IMG/VR virus record: IMGVR_UViG_2802429251_000008 | Span: 1-10,321 of that record | Direction: 5' to 3' (one strand) | Length of the DNA stretch: 10,321 nt | DNA from: a virus | Taxonomy: Duplodnaviria; Heunggongvirae; Uroviricota; Caudoviricetes | In this document: one piece after another, positions 603-10,321 of the stretch | How positions within the stretch are numbered: position 1 is the first letter of the stretch | Layout: every line of letters begins with the position of its first letter | Notes under the pieces: model-generated | What the model saw: only the letters and a program-made list of their open reading frames with translations | Databases searched by the model: none | Told to the model about the DNA's origin: nothing | Position numbers and translations under genes: made by a program

Positions 603-636
603 AATTGTATTTAAAATCAATTAGTTGCAAACGCCT

Positions 637-656
637 CCCCGAAATTCCCCGAAATT
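637..656. repeat. Tandem direct repeat CCCCGAAATT x2 near int 3' end
   Basis: Exact 10-bp unit repeated twice, about 80 bp from the int stop; candidate integrase arm-type or accessory-factor binding sites in attL. Confidence 0.4.
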
Positions 657-733: not shown

Positions 734-1810
734 TCAGAGCAGTAAGTACGTTTTTTCCCTCTCATCAAGATACATTTTTGTTGTCTTCTCCGATGTGTGG
801 CCAAGTAGACGCTGAGCAAATTCTTCTCCACATGTTTCTTTGTACAATCGTCCAGCCAGACTTCTGATCTCGTGAAAAGTTGGTGGGTTTTCACTGAACT
901 GGATACCTGTTAATTTTCTGGCTGCGACAAATTTTTTTGTCAGGCCGTCCGGGTGAATGCTGCCGTCAGGGCTGTTTTTTCTAATCCCGGCACTGATTAG
1001 ATAATCTCCCCGGCTTACCAGGCGGCACTGTTCAACTACTGTACCAAGCCGTAGACCAGCGACAGGAAGGCTGAGTGACAGGGGGATAGCAATCATCATT
1101 CCTGTCTTAATTTGCCTGATGTGGAGACGATCATCATAAATATCACTAAACCGCATATTCGTTATGTCTTCGCGACGTTGTCCTGTTACAAGGGCTAAAT
1201 CCATAGCTAATGGGAACCATGCCGGAAGTTGATCTGCTGCCTCCCTGATGCAGTTGTATGTCTTTAGTTTCAGTCGTTCTCTTGTAACTACTATTTTCGG
1301 TGCTCTTGTTGGTGTTACTGGATTTTGAGATATACGTCCTTCAACAATGGCCTCACGAAACATATCAGACAACACAGAACGCATTGATCCTGCCATTGTG
1401 TTTTTCCCTCCTTCAATCCACAAATCAAGAAACTCGGCAATATGGCGAGTGGTTATTTCTGTCAGTAAAATCTCTCCCAATTTTTCTTTTATTGTCTCCA
1501 GTTGATTTACCCGAATTTTATAAGTATTTCTGGACACTTTTCTCCTTATAAGAATCGTTTTGTAACGTTCAATCCAGTCTGCCATAGTAAATGAGTCGAG
1601 CCCTTTAAGCTTTTCAATTAAGGCAGCAGGAGAGTAGTTTTTGTATATATAATGATTTGCTTCAATTGCCTGCGCTACTGCATCTCTTCTTGAAATTTTA
1701 CCTAGTGTAAATTCTTCTTTCGTCAGAGGGTTGCGCCAGTAATATGCTTTGTCCCTCCTTCGATATGTTAAGTTTTTAGGCAAATTGGGATCGTATTTTT
1801 TCCGCTGCAT
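734..1810 (-). CDS. int: Lambda-family tyrosine integrase
   Basis: 358 aa; aligns by eye with lambda Int (PNLYxR..YY, TGQRxxD box, HExRSL..RLY box, LLGH...Y C-terminal catalytic Tyr). SD GGAGAAG 7 nt upstream of ATG at 1810. Confidence 0.9.
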
Positions 1811-2057
1811 GTTTTAACTTCTCCAGTAACGGACTGTCTCTCCCTTGTCGCCCATTAGGCTGATGGTGTGTTATATCGGTATCAACCTTATTTGGGTTGA
1901 TATAGAAAGCCTCCGGAACCACCCTGTAACTCCTCCCGTGTAGTTCAGGTGCAGGATAAATGTTTCCATTCCTTGCCCATCGTCTCAGCGTTGATATTGA
2001 TGGTGGGTTATCCGGATATCTGAGTTTTCCCCACGTTTTGAGTGTCACAAGATTCAT
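1776..2057 (-). CDS. xis: Excisionase-like DNA-binding protein
   Basis: Immediately upstream of and overlapping int by 35 nt (lambda xis/int arrangement); basic small protein. Start moved to the second in-frame ATG (2057), which has SD AGAGG at proper spacing. Confidence 0.65.
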   Translation of the reverse strand: MNLVTLKTWGKLRYPDNPPSISTLRRWARNGNIYPAPELHGRSYRVVPEAFYINPNKVDTDITHHQPNGRQGRDSPLLEKLKHAAEKIRSQFA

Positions 2058-2079
2058 TGCCATACCTCTTACGATATGA

Positions 2080-2163: not shown

Positions 2164-2352
2164 TCACGAGGACAGAAGTTTCTCGCAATTAAAATTTATC
2201 AGCTTTACTTTCTGCTCTCTGGAAACGCCTGCTTCTTTTTTCCCTGAGAGCATTTTTTCGCATTCTGATTTCGTTAATTTAGATTTTGAATATCTTGTCC
2301 AGTTAGTAGGAGTGCCACCTTCCTTTTCAATAGTGGCAGTAATTTTATACAT
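2164..2352 (-). CDS. Small hypothetical protein (Rac ydaC position)
   Basis: 62 aa from ATG at 2352 with strong SD GGAGGT 4 nt upstream; start overlaps the lar stop by 8 nt (translational coupling). Assignment by position only. Confidence 0.5.
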   Translation of the reverse strand: MYKITATIEKEGGTPTNWTRYSKSKLTKSECEKMLSGKKEAGVSREQKVKLINFNCEKLLSS

Positions 2353-2575
2353 GAACACCTCCATTATTATTTCCAGTAGTTCGTTTATTCCATCTTTCGA
2401 GTGCTTCTTTTTCACTTCCACTATAGCCGGTTCGGGATTCGCATCCGTTACACTTTGCGCGGTAATATCCTGAAATGGCTTTCACCGTTACTGATGGACA
2501 ACCACAAAATGGACATGGTTTGACTTTTGTGTATCGCACTGGTTTTTCTCCTGTGAGCTTTGTGGCTGCGCTCAT
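2345..2575 (-). CDS. ralR: Lar/RalR-family restriction-alleviation protein (Cys4 zinc-binding)
   Basis: Contains CPFCGC...CNGCES Cys4 motif typical of the Lar family; sits between exo and the small ORF as ralR does in Rac. Start chosen at ATG 2575 (SD GGGGAG 8 nt upstream), overlapping the exo stop as ATGA. Confidence 0.7.
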
Positions 2576-3252
2576 TTCCATTGCTCCCCAAATACAAAAC
2601 CAATTTCAGCCAGTGCCTCGTCCATTTTTTCGATGAATTCTGGCACCATCTCGTCAAAACTCGCCATGTACTTTTCATCCCGCTCAACCACGACATAATG
2701 CAGGCCTTCACGCTTCATACGCGGGTCATAGTTGGCAAAGTACCAGGCATCTTTTTGCGTCACCCACATGCTGTACTGCACCTGGGCCATGTAAGCCGAC
2801 TTTATGGCCTCGAAACCACCGAGCCGGAACTTCATGAAATCCCGGGAGGTGAACGGGCATTTCAGCTCAAGGCCGTTGCCGTCATTGCATAAACCATCGG
2901 GAGAGCAGGCGGTGCGCATAGTCTCGTCACGATAGATGATCGGGGATTCAGTAACATTCACGCCGGAAGTGAACTCAAACAGGGTTCTGGCGTCGTTCTC
3001 GTACTGTTTTCCCCAGGCCAGCGCCTTAGCGTTAACTTCCGGAGCCACACCGGTGCAAACCTCGGCAAGCAGGGTGTGGAAGTAGGACATTTTCATGTCA
3101 GGCCATTTCTTTCCGGAGCGGGGTTTTGCTATCACGTTGTGAACTTCTGAAGCTGTGATGACGCCGAGCCGTAATTTGTGCCACGCATCATCCCCCTGTA
3201 CGATAGCTCTCACGTCGATCCCGGTACGCTGCAGGATAATGTCCGGTGTCAT
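2572..3252 (-). CDS. exo: Lambda exonuclease (Red alpha)
   Basis: 226 aa, near-identical to lambda Exo from memory ([17 protein letters not shown]...GFVFGEQW); start overlaps the bet stop. Confidence 0.95.
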
Positions 3253-4034
3253 ATTGCCACCTTCTGCTCTGCGGCTTTCTGTTTCAGGAATCCAAGAGCT
3301 TTCACTGCTTCGGCCTGTTTCAGTTCTGACAATGCATGAATGTCGCGGCGAAATATCTGGGAACAGAGCGGCAATAAGTCGTCATCCCATGTTTTATCCA
3401 GGGCGATCAGCAGAGTGTTAATCTCCTGCATGGTTTCATCGTTAACCGGAGTGATGTCGCGTTCCGGCTGATGTTCTGCAGTGCATGCGGTATTTTCGAC
3501 AATGCGCTCGGCTTCATCCTTGTCATAGATACCAGCAAATCCGAAGGCCAGACGGGCACACTGAATCATGGCTTTATGCCGTAACATCCGTTTGGGATGC
3601 GACTGCCATGGTCCGATGATTTCTTTGCCTTCTCGGGTTTTGAATGGTTCGCGACGGCACTCATCCATCCACTCGGTAACGCAGATCGGATGATTACGGT
3701 CCTTGCGGTAAATCCGGCATGTACATGATTCATTGTCCTGCTCAAAGTCCATGCCATCAAACTGCTGGTTTTCATTTATGATGCGGGACCAGCCATCAAC
3801 GCCCACCACCGGAACAATGCCGTTCTGCTTATCAGGGAAGGCGTAAATCTCTTTCGTCCACGGATTAAGTCCGTACTGGTTGGCGACGATCAGCAGCGCG
3901 ATGAATTGCGCATCGCTGGCATTACCTTTAAATGCCGTCTGGCGAAGAGTGGCGATCAGTTCCTGCGGGTCGACAGAATCCATGCCGACGCGTTCAGCCA
4001 GCTTCCCGGCCAGTGTTGCAAGTGCTGTACTCAT
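3249..4034 (-). CDS. bet: Lambda Bet single-strand annealing protein (Red beta)
   Basis: 261 aa, near-identical to lambda Bet from memory ([27 protein letters not shown]...). Confidence 0.95.
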
Positions 4035-4039
4035 TCGTT

Positions 4040-4339
4040 TTATACCTCTGAATCAATATCAACCTGGTGACGAGCAATGGTTTCAACCATGTACCGGATG
4101 TGCTCCGCCACACGTTCCTGAAATTCAACATCGTCATCAAATGCGCGACTGATTGCCTGTTTGCTGGCACCGTGGCGTTGCAAATGGTCGATGCAGAGCG
4201 ATTCAAACAGATGCTGGGGCAGACCTTTTTCCAGGTCGTCCGCCAGCGCCGTTTCTTTTTCTTCGCGAACGATTTGCTGGTAGTGGCGTGACCATGCCTG
4301 CTCTTCAATGCGATCAAAAATTGGGCATGTACTCATCAT
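4040..4339 (-). CDS. gam: Gam, RecBCD inhibitor (short GamS-length form)
   Basis: 99 aa; from residue 13 onward matches lambda Gam C-terminal 86 residues (SRHYQQ...HQVDIDSEV). The first 12-15 residues differ from lambda and the upstream frame is occupied by the ORF672 3' end. Confidence 0.9.
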
Positions 4340-6332
4340 CCGTCACCCCAAAATTTTCAAGTTTGTTTGCAATCATCATTGCAATACCCGGAATTAATGG
4401 CGCTGAGGCTATACCCGCAGGATTTGCACATAAACCGTAAACCGCTGCAATCACCACTTGTCTTTTCCAGTCGAGTTTTTCTAATGATGAAGCTGCTGCT
4501 TCGCCAGTTTCATCACTGCAATCGCGATGCGGATCGCTGCCATCGTTCTCCTTGTGCGGATGTTCAGCACCTTCCATTTCCTCCAGACCTTTTTCCTGAT
4601 ATTCATTCTGATTTTCTTCATTAAAGGTTTTCTGATACGTTGCGTCGCCCATCACCGCGCCGCAGTCAGGACAGTTGCCGCCGCCAGCCTGACCGCAGGC
4701 GATGCAAACTTTCTCCGTTTCCTGTTGTTGCACTACTGGCTCAGGCTGTTTCGTTTCTGGCTCGTTTTGTTGCGTATTTGGGTCGTTCTGTTCCGCTTTT
4801 TGGTCGTTATGTTCCGTTTCTGGCTGATTCTGGTACACAGAGTCGCGGGTCTGGATCCCCTTAACCCATTTCGGATCATTCGGGTCGCTAATCCCTTCAA
4901 CAAATTCTCCGCGAGAGGCAGCCAGTAATTTGTCTGCATCGACAGGATTTTTGGGCGGAATGTTTTTCCGGGCTTCATGGAGTTCTGCCCGCAGTTTCTG
5001 ATATTTCGCATCAACAGAATTTACCTGTGACTGAGCATCCAGCGACTGCGTGTCCTGATGATGTTCAGTTGCATCCGGTTCCACTGTTTCAGCCGTTGCC
5101 TGTTCATCTGCCATTGCGCAAGATGGTTGCAGTTTTTCTTCATCATCCTGTTTTTCTTCTTCTGTTACACGCTGCGGCATCGGGGCAGAGGAACGACCGC
5201 AGGCAATATCCACGATTTCTGGATCAGGGTTGGCATGATCAGTTTCAGTCAGTACTTTGTTTAGATATTCAGTGACGTGTGCGGGGATAACCTCGATCCC
5301 AATTGGTGCTTCTTTTACGGACGCAACCACGATGGCGCGGGAATAATCCAGCCCGCCAGGCATGGTGATGAATTTGTCGCGGAAAACAGAAAAGGGCGGT
5401 TTATTTTCAGCGATAATTTCCTCGACACGTTTAGCGTGTGCCGGATGAAGGTTATAAATGTCCACGTCCATTGAACGAGCCAGTACGCCAGTGGCTACGT
5501 CGCGCGCCAGTGACGTCAGATCGTGAACGAAACCTTCGCCGCGATCGGTGAGGTTCCCGCCGCCAGCATTAGCGCCGGAAGCCGTGCGCGTGATGCGTGA
5601 AACACGATTTCCTTTCATCCACTCTTTTGTCAGCAGACCACGATCGGTGTAGTCTGCGTCCAGGTATGCTTCGAAAAAAGCAGTCATCAGCCCCAGGCTT
5701 GAATTGCCTGGATTAGGGAAAACTCTGTCAGTATCACGCACCAGTTTGTGGAGATCGCGAATTTCCAGCGGGTCGAGCAGGCTGGTTTTGTGGGAAACAG
5801 CCAGGGCAGTAACAGCTGGTAGTTCTTCAGCTCGTGCAATGTGTAATGCCTGGAGTTCGTCGCGTGAAACGTGCGTTACCGGTTTTTCGCTGCCGTGTTG
5901 AGCAAGCCAGCGAATGGGCAGCTCCTGACCGGAAATCGGGAGTAGCATATTCTCCTCAATCTCCGTCATGTCTTCGCCATTAACATTGGTATTGTCAGTG
6001 CTGGCTGGTTTGTCCTGCGCAGAGGATGAGGGCGCGATAAATACCATTGTGATGCCATCTTCCCCGCCTTTTTCGTAACGGTTGCAGAATTCCGTATCAA
6101 ATACGCCCTCTGGTGGAAGGTCATCAACAACGGGCAAATTGACGCGAACAGGTTTTTTAAAGTCATCTTCATCGTAGCCAGCATCGTCAATCGCAACAGC
6201 ACCACGGGATATGGCAATGGATAATTTTTTCGCTTCAGCCCAGTAGAAACCGCCTTTAATACCGAGACGTTTTCTTACTTTGTCATTTTTTGCTTCGTAA
6301 TACAGTGGGTAAACTTGTTTATCGGTGCTCAT
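4314..6332 (-). CDS. Large uncharacterised early-operon protein; possible RecE N-terminal-region relative without a nuclease domain
   Basis: 672 aa uninterrupted; SD GAGG upstream of ATG 6332; stop overlaps gam start by about 26 nt. Globular N-terminal region, acidic low-complexity middle, five heptapeptide repeats, CxxC-x9-CxxC zinc ribbon, and a Gly/Ala/Pro-rich hydrophobic C-terminal tail. Occupies the recE slot of Rac. Confidence 0.75.
4736..4850. repeat. Degenerate 21-bp tandem repeats inside ORF672
   Basis: Units such as GGTCGTTCTGTTCCGCTTTTT / GGTCGTTATGTTCCGTTTCTGG on + strand; encode [35 protein letters not shown] on the minus-strand frame. Confidence 0.6.
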
Positions 6333-7346: not shown

Positions 7347-7392
7347 TTAAAAAGGGGCGGCAGGGCAGCCACGGAGTAGAACTGATGCCGCC
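7347..7392 (-). terminator. Candidate leftward intrinsic terminator
   Basis: On minus strand: stem GGCGGCA (7392..7386) / TGCCGCC (7362..7356), 23-nt loop, then CC + TTTTT (7353..7349). Long loop lowers confidence. Confidence 0.3.
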
Positions 7393-7516
7393 AAAGACTA
7401 CACATAGCAATGTCGTTATTTACAACCGGAGGCGCACTCCCACCATTTAAATTTAACAGACAAGACCGACTCTTTATGAATACCGGAAATGCACCTTCGT
7501 GTTGTGCGCCTGTCTT

Positions 7517-9532: not shown

Positions 9533-10321
9533 ATGGCTTCAAACTGGATAAAGCTCGAGGTTATTACGCCGGATAAGCCGGAAATATTCAGGCTTGCTGA
9601 GATTCTGAATATTGATCCAGATGCCGCATTAGGGAAGGTTATTCGCTTCTGGGCATGGGCGGATCAACAAATGATAGACGGTAATGCAGATTGTAACGCT
9701 CGCGGCGTTACAAAAAGTGCAATAGATCGCATCACTTTTATGGCTGGTTTTGCTGATGCGTTAATTCAGGTTGGATGGCTGGTCGAAAATGACGTTGGGC
9801 TTTCTCTACCTAACTTTGAACGTCATAACGGAAAAAGCTCTAAAAAACGGGCGGTTACAAACGAGCGAGTTACAAAAATACGCGAACTGAAACGAAAAGG
9901 TAACGCTACCAGCGTTACACAAACGGATCAAAAAGCGTTACCAGAGGAAGAGGAAGAGGAAGATATAAATACTGATCTCCCCCTAAATCCCCCTCGCCAA
10001 AAACGAGCGTCTAAAAAATTCGAGCCGGAGGCTATTGAGCTGCCCGATTGGTTGCCGGAAACACTCTGGCATGAGTGGGTCCGGTTCAGGCAGGCATTGC
10101 GAAAACCGATTCGAACGGAGCAGGGCGCTAACGGGGCGATACGGGAACTGGAAAAATTCCGCCAGCAGGGTTTTACACCTGAGCAGGTGATTCGACACAG
10201 CATCGCCAATGAATACCAGGGCCTGTTCGCGCCGAAAGGTGTTCGGCCTGAGACGTTGCTCCGACAGGTTAACACCGTCTCGTTGCCGGACAGTGCGATC
10301 CCGCCTGGCTTCAGGGGGTAA
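9533..10321 (+). CDS. Putative replication-initiator-like protein (lambda O position; Rac ydaU slot) with internal palindromic repeats and acidic linker
   Basis: 262 aa complete ORF ending at the last base of the window; follows ydaS-ydaT; contains EEEEEED linker right after the DNA repeats. Replication role inferred by synteny only. Confidence 0.6.
   Translation: MASNWIKLEVITPDKPEIFRLAEILNIDPDAALGKVIRFWAWADQQMIDGNADCNARGVTKSAIDRITFMAGFADALIQVGWLVENDVGLSLPNFERHNGKSSKKRAVTNERVTKIRELKRKGNATSVTQTDQKALPEEEEEEDINTDLPLNPPRQKRASKKFEPEAIELPDWLPETLWHEWVRFRQALRKPIRTEQGANGAIRELEKFRQQGFTPEQVIRHSIANEYQGLFAPKGVRPETLLRQVNTVSLPDSAIPPGFRG
9693..9711. repeat. Palindrome copy 2 (GTAACGCT-CGC-GGCGTTAC)
   Basis: 18 of 19 positions match copy 1; lies inside the coding sequence. 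Confidence 0.65.
9900..9918. repeat. Palindrome copy 3 (GTAACGCT-ACC-AGCGTTAC)
   Basis: Perfect 8-bp arms; flanked by degenerate copies (GTTACAAA x2 at about 9853-9876, AGCGTTAC at 9934-9941) and followed by GAGGAAGAGGAAGAGGAAGA. Confidence 0.65.

Follow-up and report, generated by a model that had tools for sequence, protein, structure and literature searches.

The prophage locus and the host gene of the repeats

The window, meaning the whole stretch of 10,321 nucleotides that was analysed, originates from a Rac-like lambdoid prophage of Escherichia coli and is 99.7% identical to the prophage located beside yebY in strain M8. Its minus strand carries genes for an integrase, an excisionase, a lambda-type Exo, a Bet/RecT-family protein and Gam, together with ORF672, which represents the N-terminal region of a RecE-family protein and hosts the tandem repeat described here. 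The coordinates of these genes, of the repeat units and of the segments that surround them are collected in Table 1.

Table 1. Genes and sequence features of the prophage locus, with positions in the window and, where applicable, residues of ORF672
Feature	Position	Strand	Residues	Basis
Integrase	734-1810	-		
Excisionase	1776-2063	-		
Lambda-type Exo	2572-3252	-		
Bet/RecT-family	3249-4034	-		
Gam	4040-4339	-		
ORF672, RecE-family N-terminal region without nuclease domain, host gene of the repeat	4314..6332	-		ORF list, Pfam, PHROG
60-aa C-terminal tail, in place of the RecE nuclease domain	4317..4496	-		Translation
Second acidic low-complexity stretch after the Cys motif, up to the ...DCSDETGE joint	4497..4658	-	559-612	Composition, pLDDT <50, dN/dS 0.52
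Putative zinc ribbon/knuckle C543, C546, C554, C557 (CIACG...CPDCG)	4659..4706	-	543-558	Translation, invariant Cys
Array of six in-frame 21-bp units	4710..4835	-	500-541	TRF, lag analysis, shuffles, homologue polymorphism
Unit 1, YQNQPET	4835-4815	-		
Unit 2, EHNDQKA	4814-4794	-		
Unit 3, EQNDPNT	4793-4773	-		
Unit 4, QQNEPET	4772-4752	-		
Unit 5, KQPEPVV	4751-4731	-		
Unit 6, QQQETEK	4730-4710	-		
Conserved helical segment upstream of the array, candidate N-terminal anchor of the linker	4863..5039	-	432-490	Near-invariant columns, pLDDT, dN/dS 0.14, kept in distant relatives
Antisense ORF, 133 aa, crosses the array, judged spurious	4527..4928	+		
Antisense ORF, 74 aa, crosses the array, judged spurious	4640..4864	+		

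The family assignment of ORF672 draws on Pfam Exonuc_VIII (PF06630; E = 8e-38, 130.8 bits against a cut-off of 25) and on phrog_607 (E = 2e-250), and its counterpart in E. coli M8 (99.7% identity) is labelled "RecE family exodeoxyribonuclease" in RefSeq. PF06630 was the sole Pfam match; no second domain was found, so ORF672 has no C-terminal PD-(D/E)XK nuclease domain. Over aa 1-612 it is 100% identical to an 892-aa RecE (P0127) that carries the nuclease domain PF12684. Residue 612, at the end of the sequence ...DCSDETGE, marks a mosaic joint, and ORF672 ends 60 aa past it, in an unrelated sequence. This short tail is common to a class of homologues of 657-672 aa; homologues of 885-899 aa additionally carry PF12684, and an 818-aa homologue additionally carries PF16473. 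The search for the source of the tail gave just a weak and non-significant likeness to aa 328-360 of the same family (E = 0.048 in a single comparison).

Structure and periodicity of the repeat array

The array lies in frame with ORF672, each unit of 21 bp corresponding to 7 codons, and in the translation unit 6 is followed by V and then by the 4-Cys motif. Pairwise identity among units 1-4 amounts to 12-17 of 21 nt, while units 5 and 6 are degenerate. Tandem Repeats Finder (TRF) reported a period-21 array at 4747-4825 (3.8 copies, 78% matches, score 86) as well as a period-42 reading at 4736-4832. An exact-seed repeat search at the array returned no direct-repeat family, giving two weak inverted pairs that are unrelated to the units; TRF and lag analysis were needed to reveal the array, the exact-seed search being insufficient for this purpose. 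Across all lags from 3 to 149, the self-match of the array was best at lag 21 (48/63), with lags 42 and 63 next. The maximum at lag 21 was 37 in 300 codon shuffles of the whole ORF and 39 in 2000 local shuffles of 50 codons that kept the composition, none of which reached 48.

These comparisons bear on the view that there is no true repeat here, and that a compositionally biased stretch merely looks periodic by chance. The weakness of units 5 and 6 and the blank exact-seed search would be in keeping with such chance low complexity. It is refuted by the composition-keeping shuffles and by the clean polymorphism in exact 21-bp steps described below, and we assign it a negligible probability.

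The 21-bp tandem repeats encoding heptapeptides that the initial annotation had reported are thus borne out. The span given there, 4736-4850, captures a real array, although its first 15 nt or so lie upstream of the array in the gene and about 26 nt at the array's end are left out; similarly, its count of five units is fair as an estimate, although the array has six, of which the last two are degenerate. The consensus proposed at that stage, x-Q-N-D/E-P-E/N-T, compares fairly with the one obtained from 498 units in 112 alleles, [E/K]-Q(90%)-N(75%)-[E/Q/D/S]-P(68%)-[E/N/K/V]-[T/A]. The placement of the repeats directly before a putative zinc ribbon also agrees with our results, as the array adjoins the conserved 4-Cys motif.

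Copy number variation among relatives

Length variation was measured in three samples, as the separation between the conserved W-V-K-G-I motif and the last residue of the Cys motif. In 90 protein-fragment clusters it amounted to 37, 44, 48, 55, 62, 63, 69 (the mode), 70 or 76 aa; in 115 full-length proteins that share 88% identity or more with ORF672, to 55, 63, 69, 70 or 77 aa; and in 73 DNA loci (71 IMG/VR contigs, the window and L001), to 55, 62, 63, 69 or 70 aa. Measured from DSV to the first Cys in 112 distinct alleles, the tract itself comprises 21, 28, 35, 42 or 49 aa, in some alleles with a single additional residue, and this corresponds to 3-7 units. The extra residue occurs in alleles whose last unit is QQQETEK rather than QQEPEK, and a few shorter deletion forms are also present among these alleles. 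The window contains 6 units and the RecE of E. coli K-12 MG1655 contains 4; in the latter, the array is followed by CNACGQTGGDNCPDCG, and it therefore occupies the same site before the same Cys motif as in ORF672.

The variation is concentrated in the repeats. When 54 unique sequences were aligned over 175 codons, 100% of the gap columns fell inside the tract, and indels of at least 3 aa across the 612-aa N-terminal region of 100 close full-length homologues lie almost exclusively at aa 507-535. The expectation, raised from the single sequence, that copy number would vary across related prophages is therefore matched by exact 7-aa/21-bp steps between 3 and 7 units, and the tract is polymorphic in length instead of aligning as ordinary unique sequence. 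Assembly artefacts are an unlikely source of this polymorphism, since typical reads are longer than the 126 bp of this diverged array, and complete genomes, MG1655 among them, also contain the variants. The sequence types that flank the tract are found in many combinations, which implies that exchange near it is frequent.

Several individual events can be read directly from pairs of closely related alleles. The 7-unit allele L082 is set apart from the 6-unit allele L014 by a single perfect tandem duplication of 21 bp; apart from it, the two show 0 differences in the anchored segment of 231 nt and 1 mismatch in 315 nt of flanks. The new unit of L082, QQNDPNT, is chimeric between units 4 and 3. 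L083 also has an additional unit of chimeric make-up, EQNSQKA; a flank comparison is not meaningful for this allele because its contig comprises only 879 bp. L007 and L029 carry two different 21-bp deletions, the latter with the chimeric unit EQNDQNT, and L084 equals L058 minus 96 bp with identical flanks, retaining about 1.5 units (P0018/L084). Counting by eye, without a tree and in phylogenetically non-independent samples, we arrive at approximately 8 or more independent indel events.

Judged from these alleles, the length changes are recent, in-register and independent events, as would be expected from slipped-strand mispairing or from unequal exchange between units. The chimeric junction units and the in-register breakpoints are compatible with both processes. 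We infer one of these two as the probable process, rather than another route to in-register changes of 21 bp.

Selective constraint on DNA, RNA and protein

Among alleles of equal length, dS and dN/dS were 0.20 and 0.14 in the upstream flank, 0.31 and 0.22 in the repeat tract, and 0.25 and 0.52 in the downstream acidic stretch. The tract peptide is under moderate purifying selection. No extra synonymous constraint was detected on the tract, its dS of 0.31 comparing with 0.20-0.25 in the flanks; folding revealed no RNA structure at the tract (z = +0.47) and Rfam gave no match there, and with both results blank the idea of an RNA element was dropped. Neither dyad symmetry in the units nor inverted repeats within the array were found. 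The synonymous sites of the tract are unprotected, which argues against an array of sites at the DNA level, and the joint lack of synonymous constraint, RNA structure and dyad symmetry indicates that the constraint acts on the protein and not on the DNA.

These results weigh on a second alternative, in which the 21-bp repeats serve the DNA itself as a cis element, for instance as a row of binding sites for a protein or as a hot spot of recombination, while the peptide is incidental. Arrays of this sort do occur within phage genes, lambda O/ori being an example, and the many combinations of flanking types, with the frequent exchange that they imply, would suit a hot spot. However, a cis element of this kind sits poorly with a dS that does not fall below that of the flanks, with the missing symmetry and the blank RNA results, with a unit number that ranges from 3 to 7 instead of being fixed, and with a location in the recombination module rather than in the replication module. 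We therefore regard it as very improbable; an iteron array in particular was rejected for its lack of synonymous constraint and dyad symmetry and for its variable copy number.

The composition of the array also leaves a trace on the opposite strand. Its coding strand contains 7 T in 126 nt, and such a T-poor strand makes antisense stop codons rare; in 45 of 54 homologues, two of the antisense frames run through the tract without a stop. The two plus-strand ORFs that cross the array gave no Pfam or other family match. The initial annotation had attributed spurious plus-strand ORFs to the repeats, and the missing matches are consistent with their being spurious; as a sole cause, however, the repeats do not suffice, because both ORFs reach well past them, so that the array accounts for part of the effect.

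Composition and predicted structure of the tract and its neighbours

The tract of 42 aa contains 10 Q, 8 E, 5 N, 5 P and 4 T, so that these five residues make up 76% of it. With a net charge of -7 and a mean hydropathy of about -2.8, it is the most hydrophilic stretch of ORF672, and its units contain no hydrophobic core residues and no fixed hydrophobic positions.

AlphaFold applied to the whole of ORF672, with an alignment of 103 sequences, gave a mean pLDDT of 30 throughout; this model is uninformative and unusable because the homologues are too similar. A second model, for a fragment of 182 aa (aa 431-612; 75 aligned sequences), is weak overall, with a mean pLDDT of 54.7, and distinguishes several segments. 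Helices are predicted at aa 432-456 and 466-473 (fragment residues 2-26 and 36-43), where the mean pLDDT of 10-residue blocks reaches 63-89. The residues from 493 to 539 are modelled as coil without secondary structure and have the lowest confidence (pLDDT 37-44). The Cys motif shows a slight rise to about 55, and the acidic stretch that follows is low again (<50). A disordered spacer would fit both the composition of the tract and the fragment model. Likewise, the flexible acidic linker suggested by the initial annotation is consistent with the net charge and with the predicted coil.

A periodicity of seven residues could in itself evoke a folded repeat, that is, a coiled coil or a solenoid. 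This period is the one feature in its favour. The units offer no hydrophobic residues at fixed a/d positions, most of them contain proline, more than three quarters of the tract is Q, E, N, P or T, the model places the region in coil at its lowest confidence, and whole units are gained and lost freely. A coiled coil was rejected, being nearly refuted by the prolines and the missing a/d hydrophobics, and we consider a folded repeat of any kind to be scarcely credible.

The motif that follows the array consists of two CxxC pairs separated by about x7-x8, and none of its four cysteines (C113, C116, C124 and C127 of the fragment) varies across the 75-sequence alignment. No Pfam or PDB match was found for it, and a sequence search of the PDB with aa 431-612 gave nothing at E <= 1.

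Distant relatives of ORF672

Matches among 1.84 billion proteins comprise 78 cluster representatives. In the distant relatives, the helical segment is kept and is followed by acidic low-complexity stretches that differ considerably in sequence and length. The Cys motif is present in some of these relatives and missing from others, and beyond the variable stretches lie various C-terminal domains. Heptads of the QNEPE type recur among them, with six units in P0247 and shorter runs in P0261, P0280, P0289 and P0303. In P0251 and P0264, unrelated acidic sequence stands in place of both the tract and the Cys motif. The variability of these linkers suggests that the tract is part of a hypervariable tether, which joins an N-terminal body that is conserved to C-terminal modules that can replace one another.

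A length-variable spacer as the favoured explanation

Taken together, our findings identify the tract as a coding tandem repeat, or small protein-level VNTR, which encodes an acidic and probably disordered spacer rich in Q, N, E, P and T within the N-terminal region of a RecE-family prophage protein. This spacer would tether the helical segment (aa 432-490) to the zinc-ribbon-like motif formed by the four cysteines (aa 543-558), beyond which a second acidic stretch would lead to an allele-specific C-terminal module. Rac RecE has a PD-(D/E)XK nuclease at this place, other lambdoid prophages have a 3'-5' exonuclease, and ORF672 has the 60-aa tail. At the DNA level, the 21-bp units, alike in up to 17/21 nt, may be similar enough to permit replication slippage or unequal exchange, through which whole units would be gained or lost while the reading frame stays intact, given that 21 bp are 7 codons. 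Alleles with 3 to 7 units coexist as a result of these frame-preserving changes. We hold this explanation, a disordered acidic spacer whose length shifts by whole units through slippage or unequal exchange, with considerable confidence. The sequences directly show the period, the polymorphism in whole units, the chimeric junctions, the clustering of indels in the tract, the absence of added synonymous constraint and the moderate purifying selection on the peptide, whereas disorder and the function as a spacer are inferred.

The main rival to a spacer is a multivalent array of short linear motifs (xQNxPxT), in which copy number would tune valency and not length. Such motifs may gather multiple molecules of a partner from host or phage, or may dock onto a surface of the RecE protein, where they could, for instance, act as an auto-inhibitory arm whose acidic character mimics DNA. 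A dN/dS of 0.22 and the frequencies of Q (90%) and N (75%) at fixed positions indicate more conservation than a purely entropic spacer needs, so that some sequence-specific role is possible. In the same direction point the strong conservation of unit positions 2, 3 and 5, the last of these with P at 68%; the lower dN/dS of the tract compared with the neighbouring acidic stretch (0.52); and the recurrence of QNEPE-type units at different places of the linker in distant relatives. On the other hand, some alleles that look viable are nearly free of units, as in P0018/L084, or have the tract and Cys motif replaced, as in P0251 and P0264; in addition, no known motif matches, and the N-terminal region of RecE has no known partner. 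Weighing both sides, we judge a motif array to be unlikely, with the length-variable spacer as the preferred reading.

A further and rather speculative extension, to which we give slightly less credence still, is that RecE-family proteins may possess a tunable tether, or an arm for auto-regulation, composed jointly of the heptad array, the 4-Cys motif and the acidic stretch that follows. It is likewise doubtful, though conceivable, that the number of units would set the reach of the attached C-terminal effector, or its auto-inhibition by DNA mimicry. If such an arm exists, alleles of 3 to 7 units should differ measurably in recombination, for instance in the linear-linear recombination that depends on the N-terminal region of RecE.

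Relevance for RecE-family proteins

RecE/RecT is a workhorse of recombineering. Within the N-terminal region of RecE (approximately 600 residues), a length-polymorphic and probably disordered spacer and an invariant 4-Cys motif have now been located, and the natural alleles of 3-7 units offer a ready-made series for the dissection of this region. The tract also explains differences of 7 or 14 residues between RecE-family proteins that are otherwise near-identical, the breaks in megablast alignments at this place and, in part, the spurious antisense ORFs. The N-terminal domain of RecE is of unassigned function and is dispensable for nuclease activity, while full-length RecE improves linear-linear recombination (2023 review, PMC11611040). 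Nuclease-less relatives of RecE, named RecE-2, have been reported in the early-left Rec modules of lambdoid phages, with an unassigned role (Genome Res 2025 survey, PMC12315714). No description of the heptad array or of the Cys motif was found in the searchable literature.

Comparison with known systems

Among the closest known systems is the RecE of the Rac prophage (exonuclease VIII, K-12 b1350), which belongs to the same gene family and has the array in the same place and the same Cys motif. Unlike it, ORF672 has 6 units instead of 4 and ends in the 60-aa tail where Rac RecE has the PF12684 nuclease; moreover, Rac recE is accompanied by recT, whereas ORF672 is followed by lambda-type gam-bet-exo. 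ORF672 resembles RecE-2 (PMC12315714) in being related to RecE, in lacking the nuclease and in lying in an early-left recombination module. RecE-2 is described as distant from Rac RecE, and this description sets it apart from ORF672, whose residues 1-612 match a Rac-type RecE without a difference.

At the peptide level, the tract recalls the Q-linkers of bacterial proteins, which Wootton and Drummond in 1989 reportedly described as low-complexity, hydrophilic, Q/E/P-rich linkers between domains. It shares with them the hydrophilic Q/E/P-rich character, the location between conserved modules, the tolerance of length changes and the lack of predicted structure. It differs in being periodic in both DNA and peptide, strongly acidic, rich in N and longer (42 aa), with a length that is quantised in units.

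The ori iterons of lambda lie inside gene O, where repeats of about 20 bp in a coding region are translated as a linker-like peptide. The present array is comparable in having repeats of about that size inside a phage gene and a linker-like translation, and it departs from the iterons in lacking dyad symmetry and synonymous constraint, in its variable copy number and in being located in the wrong module.

In its DNA, the array resembles the coding VNTRs or minisatellites of bacteria and phages, with which it has in common head-to-tail units, a unit length that is a multiple of three, copy-number polymorphism in close relatives and chimeric junctions. It differs from them in its small number of units (3-7) and in their considerable divergence (57-81% nt identity), which probably keep its instability modest, and it neither lies in a surface or contingency gene nor acts as a frame-shifting switch. 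Coding tandem repeats that encode a Q-linker-like spacer are a well-known class, of which this instance appears not to have been described so far; the feature is a real but ordinary length-variable linker repeat.

Length variation outside the repeat units and rearranged homologues

Two minor indel sites in the RecE-family protein ORF672 lie outside the 21-bp steps of its heptad tract. At aa 535 (window ~4728-4730), 42 of the 100 homologues carry a single-Q indel that separates last units of the QQEPEK type from those of the QQQETEK type, and the EEEKQDDEE run at aa 390-395 (window ~5148-5165) shows indels of 1-2 aa.

Larger changes are represented by two homologues. In P0250 (756 aa), the sequence ...SGANAGGGN is joined straight to CPDCG, compared with ORF672 aa 253-260 and 548-553. 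The AGGGN motif occurs in two dispersed copies, and a deletion between them has taken out ~290 aa in this homologue, including the whole heptad tract and one half of the adjoining Cys motif (CxxC-x8-CxxC). P0246 (703 aa) retains CNACGQTGGD, the initial half of the Cys motif, and from there reads through into another sequence, presumably RecT-like; apparently, either a deletion has fused recE to recT in this homologue or the allele is frameshifted.

Small RNAs and other repeats in the window

Small tandem repeats elsewhere in the window were detected by Tandem Repeats Finder (TRF) and are listed in the table together with the small RNAs identified with Rfam.

Additional features of the window
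Feature	Window position	Strand	Source
10-bp repeat x2.1 (TCCCCGAAAT)	636-656		TRF
14-bp repeat x2.2	9845-9876		TRF
AGAGGA x3.5, inside ORF 9533-10321	9943-9963		TRF
RalA antitoxin sRNA	2168-2346	+	Rfam, 223.8 bits
SraC/RyeA and SdsR/RyeB sRNA pair	462-606	both	Rfam
DicF antisense sRNA	7355-7406	-	Rfam, 60.9 bits
ORF672	4314-6332	-	
Lambda-type gam-bet-exo	2572-4339	-	

RalA is antisense to a ralR-like toxin ORF; together they form a type I toxin-antitoxin pair, RalR/RalA, of the Rac type. The SraC/RyeA-SdsR/RyeB pair is situated just outside the integrase gene (734-1810); therefore, the prophage adjoins that sRNA locus and yebY. DicF is found near early genes of the kil/ydaE type.

A RecE protein without its nuclease

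As a separate observation, ORF672 is a RecE without the nuclease. Its residues 1-612 are 100% identical to P0127, an 892-aa RecE; past ...DCSDETGE, the protein continues into a 60-aa tail, and its end overlaps the start of gam. The 3' end of recE and recT have been replaced by the lambda-type gam-bet-exo genes. Part of the tail (aa 631-669) is weakly similar to aa 328-360 of the same protein, a non-significant match (E = 0.048 in a single comparison). The 60-aa tail is recurrent, being present in proteins of 657-672 aa encoded on many E. coli and Shigella contigs. ORF672 may be connected with the “RecE-2” proteins described in PMC12315714, which likewise lack a nuclease.
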